A stretch of 40,058 nt of DNA. It comes from Shigella phage VB_Ship_A7. Where the stretch lies: sequence record MK685668; one strand, written 5' to 3'. The first letter of the stretch is position 1, and each line of letters begins with the position of its first letter. The notes under the pieces are model-generated. The model saw nothing but the letters and a program-made list of their open reading frames with translations. It was not told the DNA's origin and made no database searches. This document shows positions 1 to 40,058 of this stretch, piece by piece. The translations under genes and the position numbers were made by a program.

Positions 1-177
1 TAGAGACACAGAGACACTAAGTTATCCACAGAGTTACCCACAGTTTCACCTAAAGTTATCCACAGAGCCTCTAACCTAGAGTTATCCACAAGTTACTCAC
101 AGAGTTATCCATAGGTTATCCCCAAGTTATCCACAGAGTTACCCACAGGGGGAAACCACTTTGTATTAACTATGAGA
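1..177. repeat. Direct terminal repeat, left copy
   Basis: Bases 1-177 are identical to 39882-40058; T7-type genomes are linear with direct terminal repeats. Contains repeated TTATCCACA-type 9-mers. Confidence 0.9.
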
Positions 178-413
178 TACCCACTCAGATTTTTCTGTAG
201 GATTCTTAAAGGGGGGGTACATCAAGTCTCTCATAAGGTTAACCACAGAGGCTCTATCATAAGGTCAGACCCTGTGAGTGACCCTAAGAGACCCTGTAGA
301 CCATTAAGGAATACATAAGGCTACCTCTTAGAGTTGACTTCTTACAGTGATTATAGGGAAGATGTATATCGACCATAATCACTAAGAGCGCGCACTAAGC
401 GCCAATGAGCAGT

Positions 414-569
414 CTAAGGAACACAAGTGAGTAGAGAACAAAGCAGAGTCTCCAGTTCACCGATGTGTTCAACACTAGATGCGAGACCAATGGAAGCAGC
501 AAGTACAACGAGAAATTTGTAGGTCACTCGATGCGTTGCTAGTGTCTTAAGCACGGATAGTAATCGCAT
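414..569 (-). CDS. Small protein at the T7 gene 19.5 position (51 aa, hand-translated MRLLSVLKTLATHRV...)
   Basis: ATG at 569-567 with GGAGG 7 nt upstream, stop TAG at 416-414; lies between the phiOR-type promoter and the terminal repeat, as T7 gene 19.5 (49 aa) does. Below the ORF-track size cutoff. Confidence 0.45.
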   Translation of the reverse strand: MRLLSVLKTLATHRVTYKFLVVLAASIGLASSVEHIGELETLLCSLLTCVP

Positions 570-737
570 AGAGCGTCCTCCTTGTTATACTTGATGGTTA
601 CACTGATAGTTAGGGATGTAATTACTATTACCATCATCCCTCACTGTAAGGGTCTCTAAGAGTAGACTTTAAGTAGTCACTAAGTATGCACTTTGCATAT
701 GCAGTCTTTAAGTGTCTTTAAGTTGTCTTAGGGGGCC

Positions 738-760
738 CTTCCCAATAGTGAGTCGTATTA
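738..760 (-). promoter_or_regulatory. T7-type phage RNAP promoter (phiOR position, downstream of terminase gene)
   Basis: Minus strand reads TAATACGACTCACTATTGGGAAG, a near-perfect match to the T7 promoter TAATACGACTCACTATAGGGAGA. Confidence 0.8.
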
Positions 761-847
761 ATTTCCTCATGTATATCAGTAAGTTACTTAACGGTAACGT
801 AGCGGTACTAAGTGCTTACCTATGCACCTTTCCCGCATACTTATCTA

Positions 848-2608
848 TTACCACTCAATGAAGCAGCTAGAGTCTCCGTCGTCCTCGTAGTAGATGTCCA
901 CGCCACCAACATCGTAGCTATGGATAGCATCACCACCAACGGTCTGTTTCTCCATGTGGTGTTCAAGGAACTCAAGGGTCATCTCTTCTTCACCTACACG
1001 GCTGTCCACAAGCATCCCTTCACGCAGGAACTCGATACCCAATGCGATAGCATCAAGTCGGTCATCGTGTGCCACAGCGCCTCGCTCACGGGTCATACGG
1101 GTCATCTGATAGAACGCACTGTAGCGAACATCATGTTTCCCATCAAGGTCACGAGCAGTCTGGTAGTCCTCACGGATAACCTCATCACGAATGACCAGCT
1201 TGTGTGCACCCATCAACGGTTCGATAGTATCGCAGATTCGCATCTCCTTCATGCCTTTAGCACGGATTTCCTCTAAGGCACACTTGTGATGCTTCAGGAG
1301 AATCGGAGAGAAAATCTTACCGAACATACCGTCACCGAAGTTGGACTCGTGAACGACTGTCTGTACCTTCCACTGCTTGGCCTTCTTAGCGAGCTTCTCT
1401 AAGGTAGCATCATCGTAACCACCACGGAACCCACCGACTTCCATCAAGTAGATATAACCGTTAAGTGAGTAGAGGACTGCGTACCCGGTCTCATCCTTAC
1501 CACGACCACTTGGGTCAATGACCAGAATCTTAGACTGATACTCAGCGGTACGAGAAGAGCACGTATGGAACGCATGGATGTCATCACCCTTCAGACCAAC
1601 GTTAGGGAGTTCCTCATTGCGGTTCTGACGGTTCGGCAACCACTGGTAAGACAATGGGGCACGTTCAGGGTCCACAGCGCACACGATAGCGTCACGGAGC
1701 CGTAGCGGGTACTTCTCGGCATCACTAAGGTTCGGGTTAAGCATGAACTGAAGCGTGTAGCCAGCTTTACCGTATTCGAGTTCACGTTCACGGAGGTCAT
1801 CCATATCGAATCGAATAGGGTCAGTAGGTTGACCACGAAGTAACTCAAAGCCCTCATCGTATTCAGCCTTAAGCATCGGAGCCAAGCGGTCCCCATAGTA
1901 GAGAGCCTCAGCATCATTACGTGGATACTGTGCAGGCCAGATTACAGTGCTATACCCTTTGTTATCTTCAAGTTCCTTATAGAGCGTCATCTCGGTTTGA
2001 GGTGTCCCAAGGTAGATAACACGAGAGGTAGGCAGTGGCTTAAGTAACGCAGCAAACTCAGTTACCAACGTCCAGAGCTTCTCACGGGCAGAACTCGTAG
2101 AGCTATTACCGGGAACCTCAACGTCATCTGCGATGATGATGTCAGCACGGCTACCAGTCAACTGACCAGTGATACCTACAGACTTCACAGAGGGTGAGTG
2201 GTCTGGTTTAGCCAATCCAACGTCGAAGCTAATCACGGAGTCACGCTGTCCCGGTCGAGGTTTCAACTCAGCGAGGAATGGCAGCAGGTCAATGATGTTC
2301 TTGATGAAGATGGAGTTAGCATCAGCACGTTCCTTAGAGGCAGACACGATGAGCACCTTAAGTTGAGGGTCACGCCATAAGACCCACACAACGAACGCAC
2401 AGGTGATAAAGGACTTGCCGATACCACGGAACGCCTGAAGGATAAACTTCTTGTGGTCGCCGTTAGCGAGTGTACGTGCCATGTCAATCTGACACTTGGT
2501 TGGTTTAGGTAAGTTCAGAGCCTTCCATAAGACGAACAGGAAGGCCACGAAGTCACCCTTAAGTTGCGCAATGATTAACGCATTCTTAACTTCTTGGGAT
2601 TGTGACAT
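848..2608 (-). CDS. 19: Terminase large subunit (DNA packaging ATPase/nuclease)
   Basis: 586-aa ORF, same length as T7 gp19; ATG at 2608 with SD; last structural gene before the terminal repeat in T7 synteny. Confidence 0.95.
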
Positions 2609-3054
2609 TACTTAGCCTCCTTCTTAGTTTGCATTTCTTTGATTGTATCTTGGAGTGCACGAATCCACGCATCCCCTCTTTGAGTTACTCCGATAAGACG
2701 CTTACTAAACTCTTCGTCAAGTTCGGCTCGACCATCAACGAGGCATCCACCGTTATCTTGGAGTTCTCGTGTGGTGGCTGATAGTTTGACGCGCAAGCGC
2801 TTACCATCGTTACGCAAATCATTAATGACCCTATCAGTGCTGCCTTCCAGCGCCGCAAGGTCTTCTTGGTATTGTCGTGAGATTTCGTTGACAGCAGCCT
2901 GTTTATTCGCAGTCGCCTCAGTTTGCTTGATGTACTCATTGTGCACCTCCTGTTCCCATTTAGTGTTAGCTTTGTCATATCCGTGGTTATACGCAAGGGT
3001 AATCCCCAAGGCAAACGCAGCGATTATGGCGTAGCTCTTTAAATTCTTGAGCAT
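2608..3054 (-). CDS. 18.5: i-spanin (Rz-like, T7 gp18.5 homolog)
   Basis: 148 aa; N-terminal hydrophobic anchor ([14 protein letters not shown]) followed by a charged coiled-coil region; sits between small terminase and large terminase as in T7. Confidence 0.8.
2685..2939 (-). CDS. 18.7: o-spanin (Rz1-like lipoprotein, T7 gp18.7 position) nested in a different frame inside the i-spanin gene
   Basis: Embedded ORF in another frame; ATG at 2939 gives about 84 aa (T7 gp18.7 is 83 aa); contains a hydrophobic stretch ending in lipobox-like VSAC. Start codon choice is uncertain. Confidence 0.55.
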   Translation of the reverse strand: MSTSSKLRRLRINRLLSTKSHDNTKKTLRRWKAALIGSLMICVTMVSACASNYQPPHENSKITVDASLMVEPNLTKSLVSVLSE

Positions 3055-3152
3055 AACTACCCTCCCATATTTTCAGATTTCACGTAGCGTTACCGTGAGT
3101 TGTGTTGAAATATCATAAAGACCACTAGATGTAGCGGCCTTGAGTTATTCTA

Positions 3153-3419
3153 TCAATTCAGTGTGTACTTCTCATCTTCAGTGAGACCGTCCGCGCCCAC
3201 TAGGTTCTGGTACTCTTCGAGTCCATCTGCCAGTCCACCAAGGATGTTACGGTCTGGCTGTAACTTGGAGACTTGGAACTTGTGGCGCTCTAACAGTTTC
3301 CCGATAGCGTTGTACAGTTGAGGTGTGCGCTTATCGTCATCCTGAAGGTCTTTCAGCATACGTTGAGCCATCTCAGTGTCCAGCATCTCAAGGAATTGAA
3401 TTAAGGACTTATCAGACAT
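3153..3419 (-). CDS. 18: Terminase small subunit / DNA maturation protein
   Basis: 88 aa beginning MSDKSLIQFLEMLD, matching recalled T7 gp18 (89 aa); synteny. Confidence 0.9.
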   Translation of the reverse strand: MSDKSLIQFLEMLDTEMAQRMLKDLQDDDKRTPQLYNAIGKLLERHKFQVSKLQPDRNILGGLADGLEEYQNLVGADGLTEDEKYTLN

Positions 3420-5540: not shown

Positions 5541-5587
5541 CTGTAGCCTCCTTTAGATTAGGTATAATAAAGGGAAGCTGTGAGAGC

Positions 5588-5610
5588 CTTCCCAATAGTG
5601 AGTCGTATTG
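5588..5610 (-). promoter_or_regulatory. T7-type phage promoter (phi17 position)
   Basis: Minus strand reads CAATACGACTCACTATTGGGAAG, immediately upstream of the tail fibre gene. Confidence 0.8.
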
Positions 5611-5611
5611 A

Positions 5612-8600
5612 TTACTTCTTGTCAGACTTGAGGTGAACACCATTGGCCTCATAGAACTTGATGAGCATCTGTTGGGAGATTGGGTCGTTAGGAATCATCT
5701 CTCGGTGGGCGTTCATTAAGCCAGTCATCATCTCACGCTCGGTCACTTTGTTTGGAGCCGTAAGGACACCATAAGCATTTCGACCAGCAGCAAGGGTAGC
5801 ACCAGCGAACCCAAGAGCAGGAACCTGTTCACCAATAGCGCCCATAATGGAATCACCCATGTCACGAGAAGTTACCGCCTTGTTCCGTTCTTTCTTATCC
5901 TCTCCTTTAGGGAGAATCGTAGAGCGGACCATGAGACCTTGGTCGTAACCAGCAGCACCCATAGCGAAGTTTGCGATACTCAGAGGCGACCCAAGGTGTG
6001 AACTTCGGGAAGCCGCAGCGTAGGCAATCATCTTAGGGTCCAGAGCTTTCTTCAGGTAGTCCTTCTGTTGCTCTTTAGGAAGACCAGCAGCCTTCAAGTG
6101 GGCCTGTGCCACATAGTAGGAGCCAGCGATACCACCAGAGATTGCATAGGTCAGCGCCATATCCATAGCACGATGGTTCTTAAAGGCTTCGTGACCGGAG
6201 CGGATAAACTTAGAGTTCATCGACTTGATTACGAAAGACTTGAACTGAAGGACCAACTTAGCGGCAGCACCAAACGCATGGGAATCCTGAAGTGAAACCT
6301 TGTTAGGTCTCAGCATTGTCTCATCAGCAACCTTATCAGCCAGTCGCCACAGGTCCATAGCTCGCGGGTCATTAGCCAGCTTACGCTTGTCCTTGAAGGT
6401 GTACTTGCCGTCAGCACCTTGAGTGACGTTCTCACGGATGAGGTTCTGAATGCCTTCCCACTGTTCCTTTGAGATACTCGCAGATTTCAGCATGTCGCCT
6501 TTAATCCACTTGTTGGCACCCTTACCAGTAATGGCATGAGTTACCACATCTCCCATGACACCCTGACGGGCCATATCCAGAATGTAGTTGGAAGTACCGT
6601 TGAGGAACTTAGTGAACGGAGAGCGAGCAGCCAACTCTTGAGTGGTGTGCTTAACCGTACCAACAACCTTAGCGACAGCATCAGGTGTATCAGTAGACTC
6701 ACGGAGTCGCTGAATGATGTCTTGACGAGTCGGTCGGATTAACTGGTCGAACTCTTTACCAAACACCATAGAGTGGAGTTCTTTGAGTTCACTACCAGAG
6801 ACTGGCTTGTTACGGAACGCTAGGTCACGCAGAGCGGGAATGCCATGCAGCATCGCACGGGTGTTACCCTTCGACAATAGACCAGCGATTTCAGTTAGGT
6901 TCTGCAAGCCCATATATGCGTTCTTCGTAAAGAAGGACATATCGGATAGAGAGCGAACCATAGTGTCACCTACGGTATCCTGATTGCGTCGAGCACGACC
7001 AGTGACAATCTTAACGAAATCCTTAAGTGCTTCCACTTCACCTTTCATTGTGCCTTTACCTTCAGACTTCTTATCAAGAGCCATAATAGCGTCCTTGAGT
7101 TCAGCAGTAGTCTTGCCTGTGCCTCCCATGATAGCAATATCACCATCAACACGGCGGTCATATGCTGGCATCACATGCTTCATATCGAAGTCACGAAGGT
7201 CATTCACAGAGAACTGTTGACCATTCGGTAGAGTGATTGGCACGTCAGAATCAAACAGGTTACGGGCTTCAAGGAATGAGTTGTTCTCAATCCCAACGAG
7301 ACCCTCAATGTTATCGTCAATGACACTTGAAGAGTTGAACTCATCGGTCTTCGCAATACCATAAGCCTTGTCCATAGCGTACTTCTCAGCCATCTGACTA
7401 AGCATAGCCTCTTCGTCTACCTTTGGTTCCACCTTCTCGTCTGTGCCAAACTTCTGGCGCTCTGAAGGTTTAGCCGGGGTGGAGTCGTAGGCTTTACGGA
7501 ATGCTTGACCATCGGGGGTACGCACGCCACCAACTGATTCGTCTGTTCCACGGTACACGTAGTCAGGACTCTCAGTCTCAGCGATTCGGTACATCTCGGT
7601 AGCGATGCCTTTGCGGCGGTACTTCTCGGACACCTCAAGACTTGGATTATGCCACACGTCTCCCTCACGTTTAGCGAACTCTACGCTGCCAATGTGGTCT
7701 CCCTTTTTGGTGAACACATCCACCGCGAACTCAGCACCATCAGTTGTCTTAGCTGTGTAGTAGACAAAATCACCATCCACCTTGTAAGGAGTCTCACCAG
7801 AGTAGTCTCGCTTACCAGCGAAGTAATCACCTTGGAGTTCGCCATTAGAGACCTTAGTGATGCTAGTTGAGTTACCACCAGTCACCAGTGAGTCAGGCAT
7901 TACCGGAGCAGCCTCAGCACCTCTCAGGAAGTTCTCAGCTTCAGCTTGTGCACCTTTGGCAGTAGAGGCGGCTTCTTCAGCTTCGGCGGTGGCTTTGGTG
8001 ATTCTATCTTGGACCTTAGCAGCCTGTCCTTTCATGTGGTCGAGACGCTCTGTGTTAATACGGACGTGAGACTTCTGGGTCTCAATCATCTTCTTCCGGC
8101 TCTCAATCTTAACAGGAATGGTTTTGCTATTAGGTTTAGCAGCTAGTTTTTCTTCCAACTCCTTCAACTTAGCCTCATGCGAAGCCAGTCTGTCCTTGGA
8201 GTTCTGGAGTTTCCTTTCACGGTCCGCAACTCGCTTCTCAGCGTTGGTCAGAACGTCTTTTAGTTCCGCTACCTTATCACTTGCCCGTGTAGCTGCATCG
8301 TCCAGTTTCATCCGGTAACTGGCTGTGTCTACAGACTCTTGGCTTCTGAGGAAGTTCTCAGTGTCAGCCGCAAGTTTGGCATCAGCTTCAGCTTTGGAGA
8401 AAACGTCACTGTTAACCTGTTTAAGGTATTCATCAATACGGGCCTTGACTTCAGGACGCGCATGATATGATGCCATCAGGCTTGCAGCAACTGCTTCCTG
8501 TAAACCATCAGTGCCCCCAAGAGCCTGTGAGTACACCTGCTTGGCTTCCCGCGAGTACACATGAGGAACGTAAGTCCCTTTGTGACGACTGTTAGGGAAG

Positions 8601-10546
8601 ATAGAGGTTGCCTTGTTACCGAACATCGACGGGTTCTCCATCATCTCACGCTTGAGGTCATAATGTTCCTTCACGATGTCCATAACCTTACGCTCTTCCT
8701 TGGTCAAGTTAGCTTGAAGTTCAGGTCTCTCGATAGCCTCACTGATACGACGATAGATTGTTTGACGGGCACCTTGAGCACCACTCTTGAACATACCCAC
8801 AGACCACTCAGGGTCAGCCATTGCTTCCTTCATTGCACTATAGAGGTTATTGTAGGTTCGATGGTTGAGACTACGCAGTCGCTCTATGATGTCCGATGTA
8901 GTAGAACCAAACTTACCATGTGAGCCTGACTCCATACCTGTAGGTGAGCGCACTAAGTCCTTTGCGAGACCACGGATTTCAGAGTGTTCTGAACGTAGGG
9001 TTTTCAAGCCGATTTCACTTAGTCCACGCATAGGCAATCCCCAAGCAGCACGTTCAGGGTCCACTTCAGCGAACTCTCTGGCAGTCATTGGGTTAGCCAA
9101 GTTGGTATCACTAATAATGGAACCATCACGCAGCACTACCGCACCCGGTTCAGTTTCGAGAGGTGCATACTCAACGCCGTTGTGCTGTGAGAACACTCGG
9201 TCTTCACTAGGAGGCATACGACTTGCATCATATCCACCAGTGTTACGGGCAGTCTCACGAGCCTCGAAGCGCATCTGTGTAGCAGAAAACGGGTTCTCAA
9301 TCTGTTCAGTACCAGACTTACGGAGACCTGCAGCAACACCATCAGCAACCGCAGTGAGTCCACCAGCAAGCAGCATACCAGCAAGAGCAGCTTCCGCATA
9401 GTGAGCATCGCCACCAGCAACGGATGTACGCAGACCCTCAGAGGCAACGTTAAGTGCACCAGCTTGAGCACCCACCATCAACGCCTTGTTCACCAGCTTG
9501 AATCCCTTGGCTGTAGTCCCTGCGAGTGGGATGTAGGTCAACGGGTCCACACCAGCACCAATCAGGCCAGCAGACAGCTTGGCACCAAGTCCAGCTTCAG
9601 CAGCCTTAGCGTCAGCCTCGTAGTTCTCGTTAGCCAGCTTGATTAGCTCATCAAGGTTCTCAGCGGAACCACCAAGCACAACGTTAATGTACGCAGGGTT
9701 TTTCACTTCTTTGCGAATCTTGTCGAGTTCTTCAGGCGACCAAATGTGGCTATTAAACCGTGTCGGTTGAAGTACATCAGTGAGCACATCAAAACCATTG
9801 TCACGCTTACTAGCACGGAAGGCAACACCCAAGGTTGAGTTGGAGAGTTCTGCTTCAGCAGCACTACCGAATCCGAAGAAGGTTGAACGCTCATTGGCTT
9901 CGTCAAGAGTTGTTCCTTTTGCTTCCCAATAGTCTTTACCGAATGGCTGATTGGGAGCGGTCTGTTCTTTACCTTGAAAGGACATTGAGTGAGACTCAGG
10001 GAGTTCTGTAGTTACCTTTCCTTTCTCCCCGATACCACTCATAGCAGCGTCGAACGAAATCCCTTTACCCTTTGGGGTGATACCACCGAAGGACTCAATG
10101 TCGCCACTCTTCGGAGACTTAGCGACATCCAGAAGTGAGCGCAAATAGTTACGCCCTTCGTCACCAATACCAGCAAAGTTACCGGAGTCGTAGGCTTCCA
10201 ATTGAGGCTTACCGTTTCGGCCTTCGCCTTGGTTGTACGCAAGGGCAGCTTTCAGTTCATCCCCATTGTACTTCTTAACGAGGTCTGCAAGGTAACGAGC
10301 ACCAGCATCGATAGACTTAGCCGGGTCGTTGAAGTCCTCATCAGACTGTAGGCCGTAAGCCTGACCAGTTGCCTTAGTGAACTGCATGACACCCCGTGGC
10401 CCTGTTGGTGATTGGGCCGTAGGTTTGAATCGGGACTCTACCCAACCGACCTTCCGAAGAAGGCCGTAGGAGACTCCATGTGTGTCAGCAGCTTGTTGAA
10501 ATAACGCATCATATTCATGCGGTTCGTTCGGGTTATACTTATCCAC
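5612..10546 (-). CDS. 16: Internal virion (core) protein D with N-terminal lytic transglycosylase domain; enlarged (1644 aa)
   Basis: GTG start at 10546 with AGGAGG 6 nt upstream; N-terminus MDKYNPNEPHEYDALFQQAADTHGVSYGLLRKVGWVESRF...GVMQFTKATG is the T7 gp16 SLT-type region; about 326 aa longer than T7 gp16 (1318 aa). Confidence 0.95.
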   Translation of the reverse strand: MDKYNPNEPHEYDALFQQAADTHGVSYGLLRKVGWVESRFKPTAQSPTGPRGVMQFTKATGQAYGLQSDEDFNDPAKSIDAGARYLADLVKKYNGDELKAALAYNQGEGRNGKPQLEAYDSGNFAGIGDEGRNYLRSLLDVAKSPKSGDIESFGGITPKGKGISFDAAMSGIGEKGKVTTELPESHSMSFQGKEQTAPNQPFGKDYWEAKGTTLDEANERSTFFGFGSAAEAELSNSTLGVAFRASKRDNGFDVLTDVLQPTRFNSHIWSPEELDKIRKEVKNPAYINVVLGGSAENLDELIKLANENYEADAKAAEAGLGAKLSAGLIGAGVDPLTYIPLAGTTAKGFKLVNKALMVGAQAGALNVASEGLRTSVAGGDAHYAEAALAGMLLAGGLTAVADGVAAGLRKSGTEQIENPFSATQMRFEARETARNTGGYDASRMPPSEDRVFSQHNGVEYAPLETEPGAVVLRDGSIISDTNLANPMTAREFAEVDPERAAWGLPMRGLSEIGLKTLRSEHSEIRGLAKDLVRSPTGMESGSHGKFGSTTSDIIERLRSLNHRTYNNLYSAMKEAMADPEWSVGMFKSGAQGARQTIYRRISEAIERPELQANLTKEERKVMDIVKEHYDLKREMMENPSMFGNKATSIFPNSRHKGTYVPHVYSREAKQVYSQALGGTDGLQEAVAASLMASYHARPEVKARIDEYLKQVNSDVFSKAEADAKLAADTENFLRSQESVDTASYRMKLDDAATRASDKVAELKDVLTNAEKRVADRERKLQNSKDRLASHEAKLKELEEKLAAKPNSKTIPVKIESRKKMIETQKSHVRINTERLDHMKGQAAKVQDRITKATAEAEEAASTAKGAQAEAENFLRGAEAAPVMPDSLVTGGNSTSITKVSNGELQGDYFAGKRDYSGETPYKVDGDFVYYTAKTTDGAEFAVDVFTKKGDHIGSVEFAKREGDVWHNPSLEVSEKYRRKGIATEMYRIAETESPDYVYRGTDESVGGVRTPDGQAFRKAYDSTPAKPSERQKFGTDEKVEPKVDEEAMLSQMAEKYAMDKAYGIAKTDEFNSSSVIDDNIEGLVGIENNSFLEARNLFDSDVPITLPNGQQFSVNDLRDFDMKHVMPAYDRRVDGDIAIMGGTGKTTAELKDAIMALDKKSEGKGTMKGEVEALKDFVKIVTGRARRNQDTVGDTMVRSLSDMSFFTKNAYMGLQNLTEIAGLLSKGNTRAMLHGIPALRDLAFRNKPVSGSELKELHSMVFGKEFDQLIRPTRQDIIQRLRESTDTPDAVAKVVGTVKHTTQELAARSPFTKFLNGTSNYILDMARQGVMGDVVTHAITGKGANKWIKGDMLKSASISKEQWEGIQNLIRENVTQGADGKYTFKDKRKLANDPRAMDLWRLADKVADETMLRPNKVSLQDSHAFGAAAKLVLQFKSFVIKSMNSKFIRSGHEAFKNHRAMDMALTYAISGGIAGSYYVAQAHLKAAGLPKEQQKDYLKKALDPKMIAYAAASRSSHLGSPLSIANFAMGAAGYDQGLMVRSTILPKGEDKKERNKAVTSRDMGDSIMGAIGEQVPALGFAGATLAAGRNAYGVLTAPNKVTEREMMTGLMNAHREMIPNDPISQQMLIKFYEANGVHLKSDKK

Positions 10547-20902: not shown

Positions 20903-20915
20903 AGTGCCTCCTTAA

Positions 20916-23755: not shown

Positions 23756-23983
23756 TTAAAGATAGTGATTCTTGACAACCTGTTTTACTTCAGGTTCATC
23801 ATTTGATTTAGACTCGTTGACGAACTCAAGTGCCTCGCTGTAATAAGTGAATGACACCTTACGTTCTTCCGGGTAGTCCTTAAAGTGGCACCAGAACGGG
23901 AACCACTCATGACAGAACTGCGGGTAATATAAAGTCTCACCTGTAGTCATTCTGACTTCTCGAATCCTGTATCGCCATGCCAT
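23756..23983 (-). CDS. Hypothetical 75-aa protein with C-H-x5-C-H motif (occupies the T7 gene 5.3 slot)
   Basis: ATG at 23983 with GGAGG SD; sequence ...YYPQFCHEWFPFWCHFKDY...; no resemblance to T7 gp5.3 that I can recognise. Confidence 0.6.
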   Translation of the reverse strand: MAWRYRIREVRMTTGETLYYPQFCHEWFPFWCHFKDYPEERKVSFTYYSEALEFVNESKSNDEPEVKQVVKNHYL

Positions 23984-26111: not shown

Positions 26112-26123
26112 TGTGTTTACTCC

Positions 26124-27226: not shown

Positions 27227-29082
<1,856 letters not shown>

Positions 29083-29134
29083 AGTGATTACTCCTTATAC
29101 AATTTTAGCGAACAAAGGGAGAAACCTTTCGGTC

Positions 29135-29158
29135 CTCCCATAGTGAGTTCTATTAATC
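29135..29158 (-). promoter_or_regulatory. T7-type promoter variant (phi3.8 position)
   Basis: Minus strand reads TAATAGAACTCACTATGGGAGG. Confidence 0.6.
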
Positions 29159-29245
29159 CTTACGTGTCAGAATGTAGACCATTGCCAGCATGAACGCGAG
29201 GCGATAAATCAAATCGTACAGACCCATCTCGTGGATAATCATCAT
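29153..29245 (-). CDS. Mini-ORF, 30-aa hydrophobic peptide downstream of the lysozyme gene
   Basis: ATG ATG at 29245; hand translation MMIIHEMGLYDLIYRLAFMLAMVYILTRKD; no clear SD, possibly translationally coupled to gene 3.5; its stop lies inside the promoter. Confidence 0.3.
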   Translation of the reverse strand: MMIIHEMGLYDLIYRLAFMLAMVYILTRKD

Positions 29246-29249
29246 AATA

Positions 29250-29705: not shown

Positions 29706-30148
29706 TTCTTCTTTACCTCTTTAAATTTATCGAATGGAACATCCTTAGAAGGCTCTTTCAGCCAATCAACTGGAATTAACTTGTCAGCAAACAGAATGCC
29801 ATGCTTCTCGCACCACTCGCCGTAACTGGTCGGAGACCCTTTGTACAGCTTGGAGCGGCTTGAAGAGAACACGATACGAACATCAAGTTCAGGGTACTGT
29901 TCACGAATCAGCAAGTGTTTCTTGCGGTCCTCACTGTCCCACAGACCTTTGGTTTCCACAAAGATGCCATTAGGTAACAGGAAGTCAGGGCAATAGGTAT
30001 GGTTGCTTGCAGGAATAACATAGGGTACTCGCCAACGCTCATAGTCGAACTTAATGTTCTTCCCTTCGAGTTGCTTGCTTACCTTATCCTCCAAGCCAGA
30101 GCGAAAGGCACCCACACGAGTGCCTCGACCTGCATAACCCTTAGACAT
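29702..30148 (-). CDS. 3: Endonuclease I (Holliday junction resolvase)
   Basis: 148 aa; VGAFRSGLEDKVSKQLE...YVIPASNHTYCPDFLLPNGIFVETKG matches recalled T7 gp3. Confidence 0.95.
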   Translation of the reverse strand: MSKGYAGRGTRVGAFRSGLEDKVSKQLEGKNIKFDYERWRVPYVIPASNHTYCPDFLLPNGIFVETKGLWDSEDRKKHLLIREQYPELDVRIVFSSSRSKLYKGSPTSYGEWCEKHGILFADKLIPVDWLKEPSKDVPFDKFKEVKKK

Positions 30149-30852
30149 TAGAAGTCACCATCTTCGTCTTCATCGTCCTCTTCTTCTTCTGGTTCTTCAT
30201 TCCAGCCAGAGTCGTTTTGTGGCTTGCGGGTCTGTGCTTCATCAGCTTCGTACCCGTCTTCTTCGACTTCATCCGCCCAGTCATCCTCACCACCACCGAA
30301 CTCTACCAGCTTAATCAGCATCACGGAATCCAGTTGCAGCTTAACGGAAGCACCTGCCACAGCAGACCAACCATAAGGGAACAGGGTGTATTTAATCTTC
30401 AGTTCAGAGCCACCGGAGATAGCCGGACGCTCACCACGAATGCGCTTACCTTTGGAGTCCACAATAGCCAAGTCGATTGGTTTGTTCTCACCAGTCTTCT
30501 TGTCAGTGAACGAGCCGTAGCACTTGAAGTTGAACGTAGTGGTTCCATCTTCGTTATCCATGAAAGGCATGTCGCCAACGTATGGCTTCAGCGGTTTCTT
30601 ACCCTTGACAACTTTCGGCGGGTTAGCTTCGTACTCTTCGAGACGTGCAGCATAATCCGTTTCGTGGGCTTCGACAATCTCGTCAATCATTTTCTGACAG
30701 CGAGGGTCGTCGTTGGATACAGTCAGTGACACTTTGTAGACACCACGTTCGTTCTTGAAGTCACCGCTACCGAAGTCTGGTTTAGCAAGATAGCAGTAAG
30801 GTTCAGCAACGCCACGAGCGGAAGTGAATACTTTACGTTTATTGAAAGCCAT
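30148..30852 (-). CDS. 2.5: Single-stranded DNA-binding protein
   Basis: Internal ATG at 30852 with AAGGAGA SD; product starts MAFNKRKVFTSARGVAEPY and has an acidic C-terminal tail ending EDEDGDF, as in T7 gp2.5. Confidence 0.95.
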   Translation of the reverse strand: MAFNKRKVFTSARGVAEPYCYLAKPDFGSGDFKNERGVYKVSLTVSNDDPRCQKMIDEIVEAHETDYAARLEEYEANPPKVVKGKKPLKPYVGDMPFMDNEDGTTTFNFKCYGSFTDKKTGENKPIDLAIVDSKGKRIRGERPAISGGSELKIKYTLFPYGWSAVAGASVKLQLDSVMLIKLVEFGGGEDDWADEVEEDGYEADEAQTRKPQNDSGWNEEPEEEEDDEDEDGDF

Positions 30853-31200: not shown

Positions 31201-31374
31201 TTAAGCATCGTCATATTCAATCACCTCGTTACGTGAAAGATATACTTCTTCGCCATGCTTGTTCATGATTTTATAGAACTTACCGTCCCATGTTCGCTCT
31301 GCAAAGAATATGTCATGGCGTTTAACTAGTGCCATCATATCATCTTCACCCACATACTCGACCTTAATAATCAT
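31201..31374 (-). CDS. Hypothetical small protein (T7 gene 1.8 position)
   Basis: Internal ATG at 31374 gives 57 aa (MIIKVEYVGEDD...); position only. Confidence 0.4.
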   Translation of the reverse strand: MIIKVEYVGEDDMMALVKRHDIFFAERTWDGKFYKIMNKHGEEVYLSRNEVIEYDDA

Positions 31375-31657
31375 AGCACTTGTCCTTATGTTTCTCGAAC
31401 AGTTCACCATAGAACCCAGCTTTCGCCATGTCCTTCTCTAAGAATGCCAGTTCAGATTTCTTACCAGCACGTAGGCGATACTTCAGGATGTTCCCGTAGC
31501 AGTACCCTTTGAACTGTTCAAGGGTCATCGACCGGGCAATCACTTCGATAGCCTCAATGTCGTCAAACAACATATAGTGGCTAGGAGTCCGAACACCCTC
31601 TATATCTTGTGGTTGTTTGTAGTCTTTCTCCCACGCATCACCGTCTAACAGTCCCAT
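31364..31657 (-). CDS. Hypothetical 97-aa protein (T7 gene 1.7 position; much shorter than T7 gp1.7)
   Basis: ATG at 31657 with AAGGAGG SD; TAATG overlap with the upstream gene; T7 gp1.7 is 196 aa. Confidence 0.5.
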   Translation of the reverse strand: MGLLDGDAWEKDYKQPQDIEGVRTPSHYMLFDDIEAIEVIARSMTLEQFKGYCYGNILKYRLRAGKKSELAFLEKDMAKAGFYGELFEKHKDKCYDY

Positions 31658-32028: not shown

Positions 32029-32036
32029 GAGGTTGT

Positions 32037-32059
32037 TCCTCCATAGTGAGTCATATAGA
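32037..32059 (-). promoter_or_regulatory. Divergent T7-type promoter (phi1.5 position)
   Basis: Minus strand reads CTATATGACTCACTATGGAGGAA. Confidence 0.5.
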
Positions 32060-32064
32060 AACGC

Positions 32065-32095
32065 AAAAAGGCCAGCCCCCTGTTAAGGACTGACC
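32065..32095 (-). terminator. Intrinsic terminator after the ligase gene (T7 early terminator TE position)
   Basis: Minus-strand RNA GGUCAGUCC-UUAACAGG-GGGCUGGCC followed by UUUUU; 9-bp stem with two G-U pairs. Confidence 0.65.
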
Positions 32096-32107
32096 ATTGA
32101 GTTTAAT

Positions 32108-33208
32108 TTACATCTTGACAGTTGGGTCTGACTCGACACCACGGAACATAACGAACGATGGGTGACGCAGAGAACCGTCTGGAGTTTCCTCCATGTAGGC
32201 CACTTGGCAGGCCCAGCCGTCGAACGGGTTGTTCTTGCACAGCCGCTGCATGTCTTCGCCATTGGTTGTGCACCAGTCCCCATAATCATCAAAGTTAGCC
32301 TCTGCGACTTTCTTTGTGAACTCATCCATCAGTGCCTGAGAGATATTGTTAGCGGAGACTACGCGACCTGACTCAAGGAGAACCTCGAAGCCAATCACTT
32401 TACCTTCATTAGCCAGACCCGGAGTACCCCAATTGAGTCCCACGATGACACCATCAGCTTCACACTCAGGCTTCATCTTCCACCAGCCGGACTTTTTGCC
32501 TCGCTTGTAGATGCCCTGTGGGTCTTTCACAATGAGACCCTCGTGTCCTTTGGTGCGCATGGCCTCGTACAGTTCACTCAGTGAATCCATATCGTAGACC
32601 TCGTAGGTCTCAGCGATAAGCCACTCGATTTCCGGGAAGTATTCGACCAGAAGAGAGCGGATAGCTTCCACATGATACGGCATCAGCAGGTTCTGCACAT
32701 CGTAGTCCTCACCGGAGACCATAGAGTCAAACGGCATGACACCATAGAGGATAACCTTGAGTTTCTCAGGCGATAGCATGAATGGGTGATTCTTACGGAT
32801 TCTACCAAACATATCGATAGCGTTTACAAAGTTCTTGTCTGTGTTGAACTCAAGGTTCTCACGCTTAACCCACTTGGTTCTCAGTAAGCCAGACCCTGTG
32901 TTGAAGTCCACGCCTTTGACCATCAGTTCACCATCAAGCATGAAGCCATCCGGGAAGATGCAGCGGTCATCGTTCAGGAGCATCTGCCAGCGCTTGTCGT
33001 ACCCGTTGAGATGTGACAGAGCAGGAATCTCTTTAGCGACACGAGAGAGCCACAGTGAGTCAGCCGTATTGTCAACTACAATGTTACCACGAACGCCATC
33101 ATATTTAACGTCAGCAATCAGGTAGCCAGCTTTGTCAATAGCTTTATTAACGGCAGACTCAACGAATGATACAGCTTTGTATGGGTTAGTCTTGAATGTG
33201 ATTTCCAT
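32108..33208 (-). CDS. 1.3: ATP-dependent DNA ligase
   Basis: 366 aa; adenylation motif KYDGVRG near the N-terminus and C-terminal EETPDGSLRHPSFVMFRG, as in T7 gp1.3 (359 aa). Confidence 0.97.
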   Translation of the reverse strand: MEITFKTNPYKAVSFVESAVNKAIDKAGYLIADVKYDGVRGNIVVDNTADSLWLSRVAKEIPALSHLNGYDKRWQMLLNDDRCIFPDGFMLDGELMVKGVDFNTGSGLLRTKWVKRENLEFNTDKNFVNAIDMFGRIRKNHPFMLSPEKLKVILYGVMPFDSMVSGEDYDVQNLLMPYHVEAIRSLLVEYFPEIEWLIAETYEVYDMDSLSELYEAMRTKGHEGLIVKDPQGIYKRGKKSGWWKMKPECEADGVIVGLNWGTPGLANEGKVIGFEVLLESGRVVSANNISQALMDEFTKKVAEANFDDYGDWCTTNGEDMQRLCKNNPFDGWACQVAYMEETPDGSLRHPSFVMFRGVESDPTVKM

Positions 33209-33295: not shown

Positions 33296-33318
33296 TCTCG
33301 CAATAGTGAGTCGTATTA
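33296..33318 (-). promoter_or_regulatory. T7-type phage promoter (phi1.3 position)
   Basis: Minus strand reads TAATACGACTCACTATTGCGAGA. Confidence 0.75.
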
Positions 33319-33737: not shown

Positions 33738-33798
33738 AATGTTGTTTCCTCTTAGAGTTAGAACTTAAAGTTATCTTAAAGTGTAGGAAGCCCGTAGG

Positions 33799-33821
33799 CT
33801 CCCCAATAGTGAGTCGTATTA
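33799..33821 (-). promoter_or_regulatory. T7-type phage promoter (phi1.1 position, candidate primary origin promoter)
   Basis: Minus strand reads TAATACGACTCACTATTGGGGAG, directly downstream of the RNAP gene, followed by an AT-rich leader. Confidence 0.75.
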
Positions 33822-33828
33822 GATTTCG

Positions 33829-36553: not shown

Positions 36554-37651
36554 TCAGCCCATCAGTTGAGCGTCAAGTACCTTGTCGATATTCAGAGGGA
36601 GACCCGCTTGGATTGCTAGGCGGTCCCCTAGTTGCCACTTGAGGCCTTTCACTTGTTCAATCTTGCGTGCCGCTGTGGGACCATTGCGGAACCAGAAGTT
36701 ATCCCATGCAGACCCCATGAGCATTTCGGCGCGGCGTTCGTTTCTATCAATGGCCCTGCGTTCGATGCGACCTTTAACAAACTGTGCCATACCTTTGACG
36801 TGTAACTTACGGTTGCGCTTACGGTTACGCTTGCGGCGTTTCATGTTGGCTTTCTTGTTCATCCAGTAAGTGCCATTAGGGTCACGCTTGGCCTTTCGGT
36901 TGCGACAGCGTTCAATGATGCGCTCGTTAGCTATCGCCTCTACCTCAGCAATCAGTGCTTCAGGGTCCAGAGGAAAACCGTCCTCACGTTCACGGTCATG
37001 TGAGAAGCTGACTGGGTCAGTGATGTACGGAACATCGTTATCGTCGAACATAATGTTCCCGCTGTGCATGTCGAAGGATGCAATCCCTTTGAAGAATTCA
37101 CGAATCATCTTGCACGTTTCGATGAACTCGTAGTCACCCGGTGCAAAGTCACTTGCGTCATGGCAATCCGACTCCACAAAGTAACGTGCGAGGTCAGCGT
37201 ATACCTCATGGTCGTAATTATCGCGGTCACAACTGTTCAAGTGGTCAAGTACAACCGTGTAGCAACCTGCATGACGTGCTACGTGATAGACGTTCGGGAT
37301 ACCCGCTCGGCCTTGGTGCATCCTACAGAATGCAGTGTATGCTGCGCCTGAATCCTCTTTCTTAAAGCCAACCTTGATGACTCGACCCGGTAACAGTTCA
37401 TGCGAGTAGGCCGCGCTGAAGTGACCATTGCCTAACATGCGGAATCCTGCATCACGCATCAGTGCGCCCAAGGTGTTCCACCAGTCCTGATACTCCAAGC
37501 CGTTCGAGCCATCTGTATCGTTTCCGTCACTAGTCTCACCGTTCACGATGTCAGCAGCCAGTTCGACCAAAAGAGGCTGGCGCTTGTCCAGTTCGCTAAT
37601 CGGAAGAGACTTGATGATTGCCAGACGTGCCTGAATGTCGGTATAGTTCAT
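36554..37651 (-). CDS. 0.7: Ser/Thr protein kinase with host transcription shutoff domain (T7 gp0.7 homolog)
   Basis: 365 aa; MLGNGHFSAAYSH...RVIKVGFKKEDSGAAYTAFCRM...FDMHSGNIMF...VPYITDPVSFS matches recalled T7 gp0.7 (359 aa); basic C-terminal half. Confidence 0.95.
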   Translation of the reverse strand: MNYTDIQARLAIIKSLPISELDKRQPLLVELAADIVNGETSDGNDTDGSNGLEYQDWWNTLGALMRDAGFRMLGNGHFSAAYSHELLPGRVIKVGFKKEDSGAAYTAFCRMHQGRAGIPNVYHVARHAGCYTVVLDHLNSCDRDNYDHEVYADLARYFVESDCHDASDFAPGDYEFIETCKMIREFFKGIASFDMHSGNIMFDDNDVPYITDPVSFSHDREREDGFPLDPEALIAEVEAIANERIIERCRNRKAKRDPNGTYWMNKKANMKRRKRNRKRNRKLHVKGMAQFVKGRIERRAIDRNERRAEMLMGSAWDNFWFRNGPTAARKIEQVKGLKWQLGDRLAIQAGLPLNIDKVLDAQLMG

Positions 37652-37672: not shown

Positions 37673-37891
37673 TTAAGAAAGAGCGTTCAATGTATTGGTT
37701 AATGCTTGTTCGAGTGCTGCGAGCTTCTGTGCTTTGACCTTGGCCTTTCGTCTATGCCATGCAGCCCGCTCCTGTTCCTTGCGTCGTTCGAGGTTGTTCT
37801 CACGCCAAGTTCTCACGATACGCCTGTTTGCTGCATTGAGTGTACCATTAGACCTATAGCCTTTCTTTAAGTCATCAGTGCGTTCTGTCAT
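37673..37891 (-). CDS. Hypothetical basic 72-aa early protein (possible 0.6B-type extension or separate gene)
   Basis: ATG at 37891 without a clear SD; overlaps the 3' end of the upstream small ORF by 17 nt in another frame; R/K-rich. Confidence 0.35.
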   Translation of the reverse strand: MTERTDDLKKGYRSNGTLNAANRRIVRTWRENNLERRKEQERAAWHRRKAKVKAQKLAALEQALTNTLNALS

Positions 37892-38084
37892 AGCTGGAAC
37901 CTATCTTGTTAATCTTACGGTTGGTGCGCAGTTCACGCTTAAGGCGTTCGATTCGTTGTTTCATTGCGAAGCCATCAGGTGTGCAAACTGTAGCGCCGTT
38001 ATTGGTGTGGATAGGCATGACGTAGTGTTTCAGCATGATCGTAATCCCGTGCGTTGTTTTAAAGTGATAATCATGAAAGGCCAC
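37875..38084 (-). CDS. Small early protein (T7/T3 gene 0.6 position)
   Basis: ORF-track start is GTG inside the RNase III hairpin; an in-frame ATG at 38036 would give 53 aa (MLKHYVMPIHT...). Start is uncertain. Confidence 0.45.
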   Translation of the reverse strand: MAFHDYHFKTTHGITIMLKHYVMPIHTNNGATVCTPDGFAMKQRIERLKRELRTNRKINKIGSSYDRTH

Positions 38085-38108
38085 TCATATTGAGCGACCT
38101 TGAGTTTA
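38064..38108 (-). promoter_or_regulatory. RNase III-type processing hairpin
   Basis: AAAGGCCACTCATATTGAGCGACCTTGAGTTTA core. Confidence 0.6.
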
Positions 38109-38112
38109 TCGC

Positions 38113-38571
38113 TTATCGTACTTGCCAGCGGCGACCGAACTCATCAATCGTGAAGCAACCTTGAAGCGGTACGCCTTTAGGCACTTCTTGGAAACTACCC
38201 GGCAAACGTTCAGCCTTATAGCCGTCAATGCCTTGAGCGTACACTAAACCAGCCGTGTGAGTTTGTGACTTATAGACCAGTACGCAATCTTGTTCAAACT
38301 CATTACATGCCAGACGTGCGACCGCTATTGCTTGAGATTTGTTGGCACAGCGTACACGAACAGTCAGTTCCTCAGTCGGTGCACTTGCGATAGCCTCCCG
38401 ATAACAACCAGTCAAGTCTGTAGACTCAACGCTACCGTATTCAAGCGGTGCATTACGCAGTGAGTTAACCATGTGACGATGACGACTCATATTTACTTCG
38501 TCGCAGAGGTTAGAGCGGAACGCTGATACCAGTACATAGAATACGTTTGCAGGTTCGTTAGTGTAAATCAT
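38113..38571 (-). CDS. S-adenosyl-L-methionine hydrolase/lyase-like protein (T3 gene 0.3-type SAMase)
   Basis: 152 aa, the length of T3 SAMase; the sequence matches my recollection of T3 gp0.3, which I cannot verify without a search. Confidence 0.6.
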   Translation of the reverse strand: MIYTNEPANVFYVLVSAFRSNLCDEVNMSRHRHMVNSLRNAPLEYGSVESTDLTGCYREAIASAPTEELTVRVRCANKSQAIAVARLACNEFEQDCVLVYKSQTHTAGLVYAQGIDGYKAERLPGSFQEVPKGVPLQGCFTIDEFGRRWQVR

Positions 38572-38595: not shown

Positions 38596-38640
38596 GTGAT
38601 AATCATAAAGGCCACTCGCTGGGAGCGACCTTGAGTCTAT
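38596..38640 (-). promoter_or_regulatory. RNase III-type processing hairpin
   Basis: AAAGGCCACTCGCTGGGAGCGACCTTGAGTCTA; 10-bp stem with loop CCAGC on the minus strand. Confidence 0.6.
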
Positions 38641-38984
38641 CACTCAGCAGACTCTTCGACTTCCTCAAGATACTCGTTCAGTAAGTCTTCTGCGTCCTCC
38701 CAAAGGTCAATCGTTAATTGCTCATAGATACGCGCTTGCAGGATACGGATTACGTCCTTGGTGTCCGGCATCAGACCAGAGTCCTCGAACTCAAGGTCAA
38801 TGCCCTCGCTAGCCATTACGCTGAAAACGTCGCTGTAATAGTGCGGAACAGCATTATCAGCCGCCATATGCACTGCATCGTGCAGGTCATCAGTGTCACG
38901 GATGTCATCATAACGGATGTTTTCTTTCAGCATTTCGTAAGCGTGGTCGAAAACGTTGTTGTAAGTCATGTTAGACATAGCCAT
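38640..38984 (-). CDS. ocr: Ocr, DNA-mimic anti-restriction protein (overcome classical restriction)
   Basis: 114 aa; [37 protein letters not shown]...[18 protein letters not shown] is near-identical to recalled T7 gp0.3; very acidic. Confidence 0.95.
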
Positions 38985-39373: not shown

Positions 39374-39479
39374 CCACTTTCGTATGTCTGGTTGATGACT
39401 ACTTGAGACCCTTCAGCATTACCAGATAACTCGCGGTATTGTCTGGTAGTTGATAGCGTTGTGTCTCTCAACGGTTGCT

Positions 39480-39508
39480 ATAGTCTCATAAGCCATTATC
39501 AATGTCAA
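39480..39508 (-). promoter_or_regulatory. Candidate host sigma70 early promoter (first, A1-like)
   Basis: Minus strand TTGACA (39508-39503), 17-bp spacer, GACTAT (39485-39480); T7 A1 has TTGACT-17-GATACT. Confidence 0.5.
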
Positions 39509-39513
39509 CACTT

Positions 39514-39577
39514 AATCTTAAAGAATCTTAAAGCCTCTCTTTAAGTGGTCTTATAGTCTCTTTAAGTGGTCTTATAG
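39514..39577. repeat. Tandem direct repeats: 10 bp x2 (AATCTTAAAG) and 21 bp x2 (TCTCTTTAAGTGGTCTTATAG)
   Basis: Exact tandem copies at 39514-39533 and 39536-39577, between the phiOL-type promoter and the first sigma70 promoter. Confidence 0.85.
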
Positions 39578-39608
39578 AGAGGATGACCATTAGCGGTGTT
39601 TCTCCCTC

Positions 39609-39631
39609 TCTCTCAATAGTGAGTCATATTA
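39609..39631 (-). promoter_or_regulatory. T7-type phage promoter (phiOL position, left-end promoter of the native map)
   Basis: Minus strand reads TAATATGACTCACTATTGAGAGA. Confidence 0.7.
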
Positions 39632-39773
39632 AAGGCTATTGACTCAAAGCCACCTTTAAGGCACTATAGGCACTCAGTCGATTCTCCTTGTCTCTCTCTC
39701 ATTACTCAGAGACTGCTAAACAGAGTAAGATAATGAATCCCCTTTGTGACGAAGCCTGCTGGTCACTGATAAA

Positions 39774-39857
39774 CATAAGGCACTGACTGAAGGTTAACAT
39801 AAGGATAGGCAGCCATAAGGTGATACTCTAAGGGTCACATAAGGTGATGACATAAGG
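39774..39857. repeat. Array of 5 CATAAGG heptamers (CCTTATG on the coding strand) adjacent to the terminal repeat
   Basis: Copies at 39774, 39798, 39814, 39838 and 39851; occupies the position of the T7 CCTAAAG-type short repeats next to the terminal repeat. Confidence 0.8.
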
Positions 39858-39881
39858 AGATACTCAATGGTCACTTACAGA

Positions 39882-40058
39882 TAGAGACACAGAGACACTA
39901 AGTTATCCACAGAGTTACCCACAGTTTCACCTAAAGTTATCCACAGAGCCTCTAACCTAGAGTTATCCACAAGTTACTCACAGAGTTATCCATAGGTTAT
40001 CCCCAAGTTATCCACAGAGTTACCCACAGGGGGAAACCACTTTGTATTAACTATGAGA
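39882..40058. repeat. Direct terminal repeat, right copy
   Basis: Identical to 1-177. Confidence 0.9.

Follow-up and report, generated by a model that had tools for sequence, protein, structure and literature searches.

Why does the genome of Shigella phage VB_Ship_A7 (sequence record MK685668) lack a whole series of the accessory genes of phage T7? A sequence-only reading of this stretch of 40,058 nucleotides, hereafter the window, had found by synteny no equivalents of T7 genes 0.4, 0.5, 1.4, 2.8, 3.8, 5.3, 5.9 and 7.7, no HNH endonuclease genes and a gene of 97 aa at the 1.7 position, and it had called the gene content reduced and mosaic relative to T7. These differences from T7 are real, but T7 is the wrong yardstick for them, most of the apparent losses being the normal state or a polymorphism of the genus Berlinvirus. 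It is highly probable that the window is a complete Berlinvirus genome and that three ordinary processes, namely the inheritance of the genus backbone, the traffic of selfish elements and the exchange of cassettes, account for its differences from T7.

Genome identity and genus placement

The window is a complete linear genome and, as found by repeat analysis, it is bounded by a perfect direct terminal repeat of 177 nt:

1..177, no strand: direct terminal repeat, right end of the phage genome, 100% match to 39882-40058
39882..40058, no strand: direct terminal repeat, left end of the phage genome, 100% match to 1-177

All of the long open reading frames (ORFs) are on the minus strand in the order seen in T7, the core genes from 0.7 to 19 are all collinear with the T7 supergroup, and the reading frames are intact throughout. 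With its single-subunit RNA polymerase, collinear genes and direct terminal repeats the genome has the architecture of that supergroup. By megablast the window groups with BA14, 285P, Kvp1 and FE44-type phages of the genus Berlinvirus; the top match of the late half is vB_YenP_WW1 (hereafter WW1; 93.4% identity, 91% coverage) and that of the early and middle half is P483 (95.0% identity, 90% coverage). We compared the window with a panel of eight Berlinviruses (BA14, P483, WW1, P694, pO103, 285P, P151 and Kvp1) and with T7, T3 and AV103. Intergenomic similarity, taken here as identity multiplied by the aligned fraction, was 76.0-84.7% to the eight Berlinviruses as against 48-52% to T7, T3 and AV103, and it was highest to WW1 (84.7%) followed by P483 (83.8%). 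The thresholds of the International Committee on Taxonomy of Viruses are genome-wide nucleotide identities of at least 70% for a genus and at least 95% for a species (quoted in PMC13600099). Since the similarities of 76-85% fall between the two, the window is a Berlinvirus genome, a BA14-like member of the T7 supergroup, and it is under the species cut-off to every genome compared. Among the top matches, which were examined in detail, no INPHARED record covers the genome at 95% or more, and the window is probably a new species of Berlinvirus.

Although the overall similarity of BA14 to the window is 77%, the core proteins of the two are 94-99% identical (gp1 98.5%, gp4A 97.9%, gp5 97.4%, gp6 98.0%, gp8 97.8%). 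BA14 has the same gene order, a SAMase gene at the 0.3 locus, mini-ORFs between genes 3.5 and 4, promoters with a T7-like core and terminal repeats of ~180-190 bp. Like the window it is without gp5.9 and has the same 4-nt ATGA overlap of genes 5.7 and 6, and it is also without 0.4, 0.5, 1.4, 3.8 and 7.7. The differences are that gp1.05, orf23, a gp2.8-type HNH gene before gene 5 and a 185-aa ORF before gene 19 of BA14 have no counterpart in the window, whereas ocr, a T7-type 0.6A, gene 7, a 75-aa ORF after gene 5 and an insertion of 325 aa in gp16 are in the window and not in BA14. P483 and WW1, both at 84-85% similarity, resemble the window in different parts. P483 shares with it the left end, the 97-aa gp1.7, orf75 and module A of the gp16 insertion, but differs in carrying 1.05, orf50 and a divergent HNH gene and in having neither ocr nor module B. 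WW1 shares the late region including the tip of gp17, orf75 and the HNH-free state, but ocr and the two gp16 modules are missing from it, and gp5.9, a gp0.4 homologue and 1.05 are present. T7 itself shares synteny, ocr, 0.6A, gene 7 and the promoter core with the window. However, its intergenomic similarity is ~51% and it has 0.4, 0.5, 1.4, 2.8, 3.8, 4.1, 5.3, 5.9 and 7.7, whereas the window has SAMase, a short 1.7 and larger gp16 and gp17.

The word reduced is apt for the gene count, ~53 mapped ORFs against 56 T7 protein queries, and not for the size, because the genome of 40,058 bp is not shorter than that of T7 (39,937 bp). The lost genes are balanced by SAMase, a 975-nt insertion in gene 16 and a longer gp17. 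The genome is indeed mosaic: P483, P151, pO103, 285P, BA14 and WW1 alternate as the nearest relative along it, in the usual patchwork of T7-group phages.

Absent T7 genes and variation within Berlinvirus

All 56 T7 proteins were searched against the window by permissive tBLASTn (E≤10, word size 2), and T3 and BA14 proteins were searched likewise. T7 0.4, 0.5, 1.4, 2.8, 3.8, 5.3, 5.9 and 7.7 gave chance-level matches at unrelated places (E 0.055-1.2, at most 22 bits). Noise alone was obtained with T7 4.1 (E 0.92), T7 19.3 yielded a 12-residue match and nothing else (E 0.025), and the T7 version of 6.3 had no match, a BA14-type 6.3 being present in the window. Profile hidden Markov models built from 8 HNH, 4 gp5.9, 2 PD-(D/E)XK-5.3 and 3 gp0.4 sequences were run against stop-to-stop segments of at least 20 aa in all six frames of the window and of 11 control genomes. 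Every known copy in the 11 genomes was recovered at E≤1e-14, including unannotated ones in pO103 and P483. In the six frames of the window the best E values were 3.2 with the HNH profile and 3.7 with the gp0.4 profile, and there was no match either with the PD-(D/E)XK-5.3 profile or with the gp5.9 profile, which found its target in 7 control genomes; an HNH_3 Pfam scan of the unassigned ORFs was also negative. When the proteins had been mapped, the coding-size gaps left were the divergent C-terminal half of the tail fibre, a block within gene 16 and three small ORFs. Pfam, PHROG, NCBIfam and PDB sequence searches found no nuclease, gp5.9 or gp0.4 signature in the three small ORFs or in the gp16 insertion, and the coverage analysis left no gap large enough for an endonuclease gene. 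The absences that had been read from synteny are confirmed, and the genome is free of homing endonucleases on wider grounds than had been given. The reservation that small or divergent homologs may have been missed largely falls away, since the six-frame searches with their recovered controls found none in the window.

The empty loci are the following:

32029..32110, minus strand: empty 1.4 locus, 82 nt between the ligase gene (1.3) and 1.5, with no protein match and none to T7 gp1.4
30146..30150, minus strand: empty 2.8 locus, where the stop of gene 2.5 overlaps the start of gene 3 (ORFs 30148-30909 and 29702-30148); HNH profile negative
28986..29249, minus strand: empty 3.8 locus; the 264 nt separating 3.5 from 4A hold only a phage promoter and two mini-ORFs of the BA14 type (29 and 28 aa)
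26112..26123, minus strand: empty 4.7/5 junction, 12 nt, where BA14 has a gp2.8-type HNH gene; no match to BA14 gp2.8
23233..23236, minus strand: empty 5.9 locus, ATGA overlap of the 5.7 stop and the gene 6 start (ATG 23236-23234, TGA 23235-23233)
20903..20915, minus strand: empty 7.7 locus, 7.3 and 8 being 13 nt apart; no match to T7 gp7.7
2608..2608, minus strand: empty 18.5/19 junction, 1-nt overlap, where BA14, P483 and 285P have a 185-aa ORF; no match to BA14 orf50

At the 3.8 locus BA14 orf17 matches 29245-29159 and BA14 orf18 matches 29082-28999, and the promoter is at 29117-29159. The ATGA overlap of 5.7 and 6, which had been read correctly from the sequence, leaves no room for gp5.9, which has 52-60 aa in T7 and Kvp1, and the profile was negative there too. 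It had also been held that 3.8 and 5.3 are the HNH loci of T7. This is right for 3.8, which is an HNH_3 gene, and wrong for 5.3, because T7 gp5.3 is PD-(D/E)XK-like (PDDEXK_5, Pfam E=1.1e-10); the HNH_3 genes of T7 are 2.8, 3.8 and 7.7, and it is T3 gp5.3 that is HNH by Pfam. Nor is the 5.3 slot of the window empty, since an ORF of 75 aa sits in it. This ORF is listed here with gene 1.7 and the small ORF next to it:

31364..31657, minus strand: gene 1.7, short, 97 aa, DUF3310 domain only (Pfam DUF3310 E=7.3e-21)
31201..31410, minus strand: small ORF between 1.7 and 1.8, phrog_38524 (PHROG E=4.3e-43), also in P483, P694 and pO103
23756..23983, minus strand: 75-aa ORF in the 5.3 slot, phrog_18049 (PHROG E=1.6e-53), 97% identical in P483 and WW1

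The length of 97 aa given for the 1.7 product is correct. By tBLASTn it matches residues 112-195 only of the T7 nucleotide kinase gp1.7, with 83% identity, and the N-terminal ~110 residues, which precede DUF3310 in the full-length protein, are absent. Within the genus this N-terminal part varies continuously, with 42-99% of T7 gp1.7 covered, and P483 has the same 97-aa form. The phrog_38524 ORF had no Pfam or NCBIfam match. The 75-aa ORF has a C-H-x6-C-H pattern, FCHEWFPFWCH. Its designation in WW1 as a 'putative homing endonuclease' is unsupported by Pfam, NCBIfam, PHROGs, the PDB search and the HNH and PD-(D/E)XK profiles.

A presence/absence matrix of the window and the 11 genomes, refined with the profiles, places each 'missing' gene at a polymorphic locus. 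None of the eight Berlinviruses has T7 0.5, 1.4 or 4.1. Three of the eight (WW1, P694 and 285P) are HNH-free; the other five, namely BA14, P483, pO103 (with two copies), P151 and Kvp1, have HNH genes at differing junctions. gp5.9 is absent from four (BA14, P483, pO103 and 285P) and present, with 59-60 aa, in WW1, P694, P151 and Kvp1. WW1, P694 and P151 have a gp0.4 homologue, and P694 and P151 also have ocr. Gene 1.05, absent from the window, is likewise absent from P694 and pO103, and orf50, the 185-aa ORF before gene 19, is absent from the window as it is from WW1, P694, pO103, P151 and Kvp1. Other Berlinviruses have been described as differing by endonuclease insertions and in kinase, ligase, nucleotide-kinase and H-NS-inhibitor genes (PMC13600099), and the expansion of HNH genes in a T3 relative has been ascribed to the parasitic nature of these genes (PMC11680406). 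This polymorphism in the relatives, together with the published differences, makes the gene-content pattern of the window ordinary for its genus. The list of absences therefore matters little, since it amounts to genus-level differences between Berlinvirus and T7 that are already known, together with the equally familiar patchiness of homing endonucleases. With all of its endonuclease insertion sites unoccupied, this Berlinvirus is a handy 'ground state' for site mapping and for homing experiments.

There are also three annotation problems in the panel. In WW1, a genome without ocr, the gp0.4 homologue at 9482-9646 is unannotated or mislabelled. The divergent HNH gene of P483 at 28608-29114 is annotated only partly, as a hypothetical ORF of 192 nt, and in pO103 a second HNH gene at 13084-13683 lies where the annotation shows a 123-nt ORF only.

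The early region and the origin of the gene set

The sequence-only reading had taken the early region as T3-like (SAMase, 0.6, 0.7) with an added ocr. The region holds these features:

38640..38984, minus strand: ocr (gene 0.3, T7 type), 114 aa, DNA-mimic anti-restriction protein (Pfam ocr, PF08684, E=1.9e-63, positions 1-101/101)
38607..38653, minus strand: R0.5-like hairpin of the RNase III type, separating ocr from SAMase (fold -22.1 kcal/mol, z=-3.8; 97% to T7 1418-1478)
38113..38571, minus strand: SAMase / SAM lyase (gene 0.3, T3 type), 152 aa (Pfam S-AdoMet_lyase, PF23780, E=6.4e-41, positions 1-132/133)
38076..38122, minus strand: another R0.5-like hairpin of the RNase III type, separating SAMase from 0.6A (fold -19.5 kcal/mol, z=-5.1)
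37673..38084, minus strand: gene 0.6A (T7 type) and overlapping 0.6B frameshift-extension ORF (0.6A start probably 38036; 0.6B 37673-37891)
36554..37651, minus strand: gene 0.7 protein kinase, BA14 type (78% to BA14, 52% to T7, 50% to T3)

Of the three genes called T3-like, the description fits SAMase only, which is 88% identical to T3 gp0.3 and 83% to BA14 gp0.3; 0.6 is of the T7 type and 0.7 of the BA14 type. The 0.6A product is 92% identical to T7 gp0.6A over 53/53 residues, and neither T3 0.6 nor BA14 0.6A had a tBLASTn match in the window. 0.6A and the overlapping ORF of 72 aa match positions 1-53 and 53-102 of phrog_8393, that is, a T7-like 0.6A/0.6B frameshift arrangement. Most panel Berlinviruses have a T3-type 0.6 before the same 0.6B-like extension, whereas the 0.6A of the window is T7-type. 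Ocr is clearly present. It is 97% identical to T7 gp0.3 over 106 residues, and its C-terminal 8-11 residues differ from T7 because of the junction left by the deletion of 0.4. The ocr region is the sole markedly T7-like DNA segment, with ~90% identity to T7 884-1258 as against ~71% genome-wide. In genome orientation the P483-like backbone ends at ~1004 and restarts at ~1438; positions 1030-1408 correspond to T7 884-1258 and positions 1404-1464 to T7 1418-1478, and T7 1259-1417, which is gene 0.4, is skipped. Judged by these sequence comparisons, the early region is a Berlinvirus SAMase-0.6A-0.6B-0.7 block, as in vB_SEqdws-315, upstream of which stands a T7-type ocr cassette, rather than a T3-like region to which ocr was added.

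The two hairpins flanking SAMase (1404-1464 and 1946-2000 in genome orientation) are a direct repeat, family D4, and they align with the annotated T3 sites R0.5 and R4.7 and with the matching T7 intergenic sequence. The right-hand similarity breakpoint of the ocr cassette sits inside the R0.5-like hairpin. A second repeat pair, family D3, at 26580-26630 and 33248-33298, consists of sites that look RNase III-type near 4.5/4.7 and 1.2/1.3.

The gp0.3 locus has been described in the BASEL paper as holding either Ocr, in Teseptimavirus, or SAMase, in other genera (PMC8594841). In our searches both genes were present in one of the 30 IMG/VR contigs with an Ocr relative and in three INPHARED records, and 0.4 follows ocr in 16 of the 17 IMG/VR contigs whose Ocr is closely related. 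In P694 and P151 and in the Teseptimavirus AV103, ocr and SAMase adjoin at the start of the early region as they do in the window. The order there is SAMase, ocr and a gp0.4-type ORF, whereas in the window it is ocr and SAMase with 0.4 deleted; the gp0.4-type ORF is 84% identical to T7 gp0.4 in P694, 82% in P151 and only 35% in AV103. The ocr-to-SAMase junction of the window was seen in no database record searched, and an exact-pattern scan of IMG/VR for it gave 0 matches, which is weak evidence because exact identity was required. Thus the occurrence of ocr and SAMase together is rare and already known, the order of ocr before SAMase without 0.4 is new but minor, and the genome is a minor counter-example to the either-Ocr-or-SAMase rule.

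How could this gene set have arisen? The backbone of the genus would account for the lack of T7 0.5, 1.4 and 4.1, which the Berlinvirus lineage does not have, and for a gene 1.7 that is short and DUF3310-only or intermediate. Selfish elements, namely free-standing HNH and PD-(D/E)XK homing endonuclease genes, would be gained and lost sporadically at intergenic junctions, and the known insertion sites (2.5/3, 3/3.5, 3.5/4, 4/4.3, 4.7/5, 5/5.5, 7.3/8 and 18.5/19) are all empty here. Cassette exchange by recombination among co-infecting T7-group phages would explain ocr, SAMase, 0.4, 0.6, 1.05, 5.9, gene 7, the gp16 inserts and the gp17 tip. In the early region a T7-type ocr cassette would have been inserted upstream of the resident SAMase, with 0.4 missing and T7 position 1258 joined to 1418, and the right-hand crossover would have fallen inside the conserved RNase III-site hairpin of ~50 nt, copies of which flank SAMase. 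A SAMase gene bounded by RNase III-site repeats, with the ocr breakpoint within one of them, points to a simple recombination route, and these conserved sites may act as recombination linkers between early-gene cassettes. From the observed presence and absence of genes, the identities, the junctions and the repeats we infer both the direction of the events and the recombination at RNase III sites.

Several points weigh against this account. Recombination at RNase III sites is deduced from the positions of the breakpoints alone, and the left breakpoint (~1004-1030 in genome orientation) is at the edge of, and not clearly inside, an R0.3-like element; this upstream element of 61 nt folds without significance (z=+0.8). 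At each locus the gene may have been lost or may never have been gained. The frequencies of 3/8 and 4/8 are rough, eight Berlinvirus genomes having been compared in detail, and all eight or more insertion sites empty at once is a minority state in the panel.

The gene set could instead have been tuned adaptively, abortive-infection triggers and genes that carry a replication cost (the RecBCD inhibitor gp5.9, gp0.4 and homing endonucleases) having been shed, Ocr and SAMase stacked, and a virion-delivered GNAT domain added. Sensors of the retron or PARIS type can respond to RecBCD inhibitors and to Ocr. The polymorphism of gp5.9 within the genus would fit such tuning, as would the rarity of ocr with SAMase and the either/or view of their locus noted above, and Ocr and SAMase inhibit type I restriction-modification and BREX by independent mechanisms (10.1101/2023.02.27.530186; PMC11680406). 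However, Ocr has been kept, contrary to sensor avoidance as a general rule, and the same absences occur in other combinations in the relatives, as drift and recombination predict. We consider adaptive tuning unlikely to be what shaped the gene set, although it is compatible with the three processes proposed here.

Far less probable still is that the 'missing' genes are present and only too divergent, small or displaced to be detected. They are short (47-139 aa) and fast-evolving, and T7 gp1.1 and gp1.5 as queries do match the window weakly (E 0.033 and 1.1) despite clear BA14-type homologues. However, T7, T3, BA14, Kvp1, P151 and AV103 versions were used along with the family profiles, and the controls were recovered while the window gave nil; the genes at the relevant junctions overlap or are 12-13 nt apart, and the sequence left over has none of the signatures sought. 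We likewise give almost no credence to the view that the T7-like island at ocr and the compactness of the gene set come from a chimeric or incomplete assembly or from recombination with T7 in the laboratory. In its favour, ocr and 0.6A are 92-97% identical to the T7 proteins against 50-80% elsewhere, and the ocr-to-SAMase junction is in no record. However, the ocr DNA is as close to P694, P151 and vB_Yep_9 (89-95%) as to T7, or closer, and so is not T7 contamination; the terminal repeats are perfect with gene order and frames undisturbed, and the junction falls within a conserved RNase III hairpin, as natural homologous recombination would give.

Gene 16, the tail fibre and the promoters

The insert in gp16 that resembles a GNAT acetyltransferase is the only lead of real interest in the genome. 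The features concerned are:

5612..10546, minus strand: gene 16, 1644 aa (T7 1318, BA14 1315 aa), Pfam SLT domain at the N-terminus
7934..8410, minus strand: gp16 insertion module A, Lys/Glu-rich and coiled-coil-like (weak SMC/Rad50 coiled-coil matches only)
7436..7933, minus strand: gp16 insertion module B, GNAT acetyltransferase-type domain (Pfam Acetyltransf_1 23.8 bits, cutoff 20.7, E=5.6e-5)

The insertion of 325 aa (975 nt) at 7436-8410 is in frame and follows residue ~711, and the gp16 of T7 and BA14 align as blocks on either side of it. The size range given for gp16 homologues in a review is 609-1337 aa (PMC8954989), and the 1644-aa protein is the longest met in this analysis. By tBLASTn, module A is in gp16 of P483, Carena, NC-A, ST31 and others, and module B is in gp16 of pO103, PP74, EcpYZU01, LET1, ESh9 and several Klebsiella phages, with 65-97% identity and at the same mid-protein position, as well as in a 2839-aa protein of Acinetobacter phage Ab9. 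The gp16 proteins with module B have it without module A, whereas the window combines both, and no database record with the two together in gp16 was found by tBLASTn. Module B appears to be a mobile module that is common to gp16 of at least three other genera and to a giant virion protein of an Acinetobacter phage.

The assignment of module B to the GNAT type draws on its homologues as well, since 7/7 diverse copies match GNAT families independently, the best at 6.3e-7. In GNATs the acetyl-CoA-binding motif A is Q/R-x-x-G-x-G/A and comes after strand beta4. The RRKGIA of module B, which is invariant in 7 module B sequences down to 26% identity, fits this signature. A single-sequence AF2 model had a mean pLDDT of 53, with 70-83 in the core, and its top Foldseek matches were mostly GNATs over ~60 residues, none at E≤1e-3. 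The best E in a PDB profile search was 0.088, a PDB sequence search with module B alone gave noise only, and a search of a large protein database returned no module B homologues. We rejected the insertion as an intein or an embedded endonuclease because it has no such domain, A being coiled-coil-like and B GNAT-like. Module B was also rejected as a copy of gp13 (hhalign probability 0.3%), which Hardies et al. have reported to be acetyltransferase-like (PMC4819975).

What might such a domain do in gp16? The C-terminal part of gp16 is located in the host cytoplasm after ejection (PMC8954989), which makes a delivered enzymatic domain plausible. A tentative possibility, which we put forward with considerable doubt, is that gp16 carries an active GNAT domain beside a coiled-coil spacer and that this is delivered with the DNA, before phage expression, as a host-takeover or anti-defence effector. 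If this is true then, with the tandem Ocr and SAMase, the lineage would have three stacked early counter-defence functions, and if the GNAT-type insert is real and active, T7-like phages could load enzymatic cargo into the ejectosome. No description of a GNAT-type insert in gp16 was found in the literature searched.

The N-terminal domain of the tail fibre protein gp17 (3675-5540, minus strand, 621 aa) is of the T7 type. WW1 alone shares the C-terminal half, which ends, unlike that of T7 gp17, in a Peptidase_S74 intramolecular-chaperone domain (residues 515-583).

At the right end, positions 142-441 on the minus strand are the counterpart of 'orf55' of BA14 (58% by tBLASTn). They contain six stop codons here, which suggests that this is conserved non-coding DNA of the right end and that the annotation of 'orf55' in BA14 is doubtful, and they were not counted as a gene.

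An approximate T3 promoter string, not the exact consensus, gave 0 matches in the window, an uninformative result. Repeat analysis (family D1) found at least 12 copies of a phage promoter with the T7-like core TAATACGACTCACTATTGGGAGA on the coding strand. The copies are at 722-764, 5572-5614, 13879-13921, 18279-18321, 19259-19301, 22196-22238, 27188-27230, 29117-29159, 30886-30928, 33280-33322, 33783-33825 and 39593-39635. The core is the T7 consensus except for one change beside the start site. Despite this near-T7 promoter core, the RNA polymerase is only 76% identical to that of T7 and is 98.5% identical to that of BA14.

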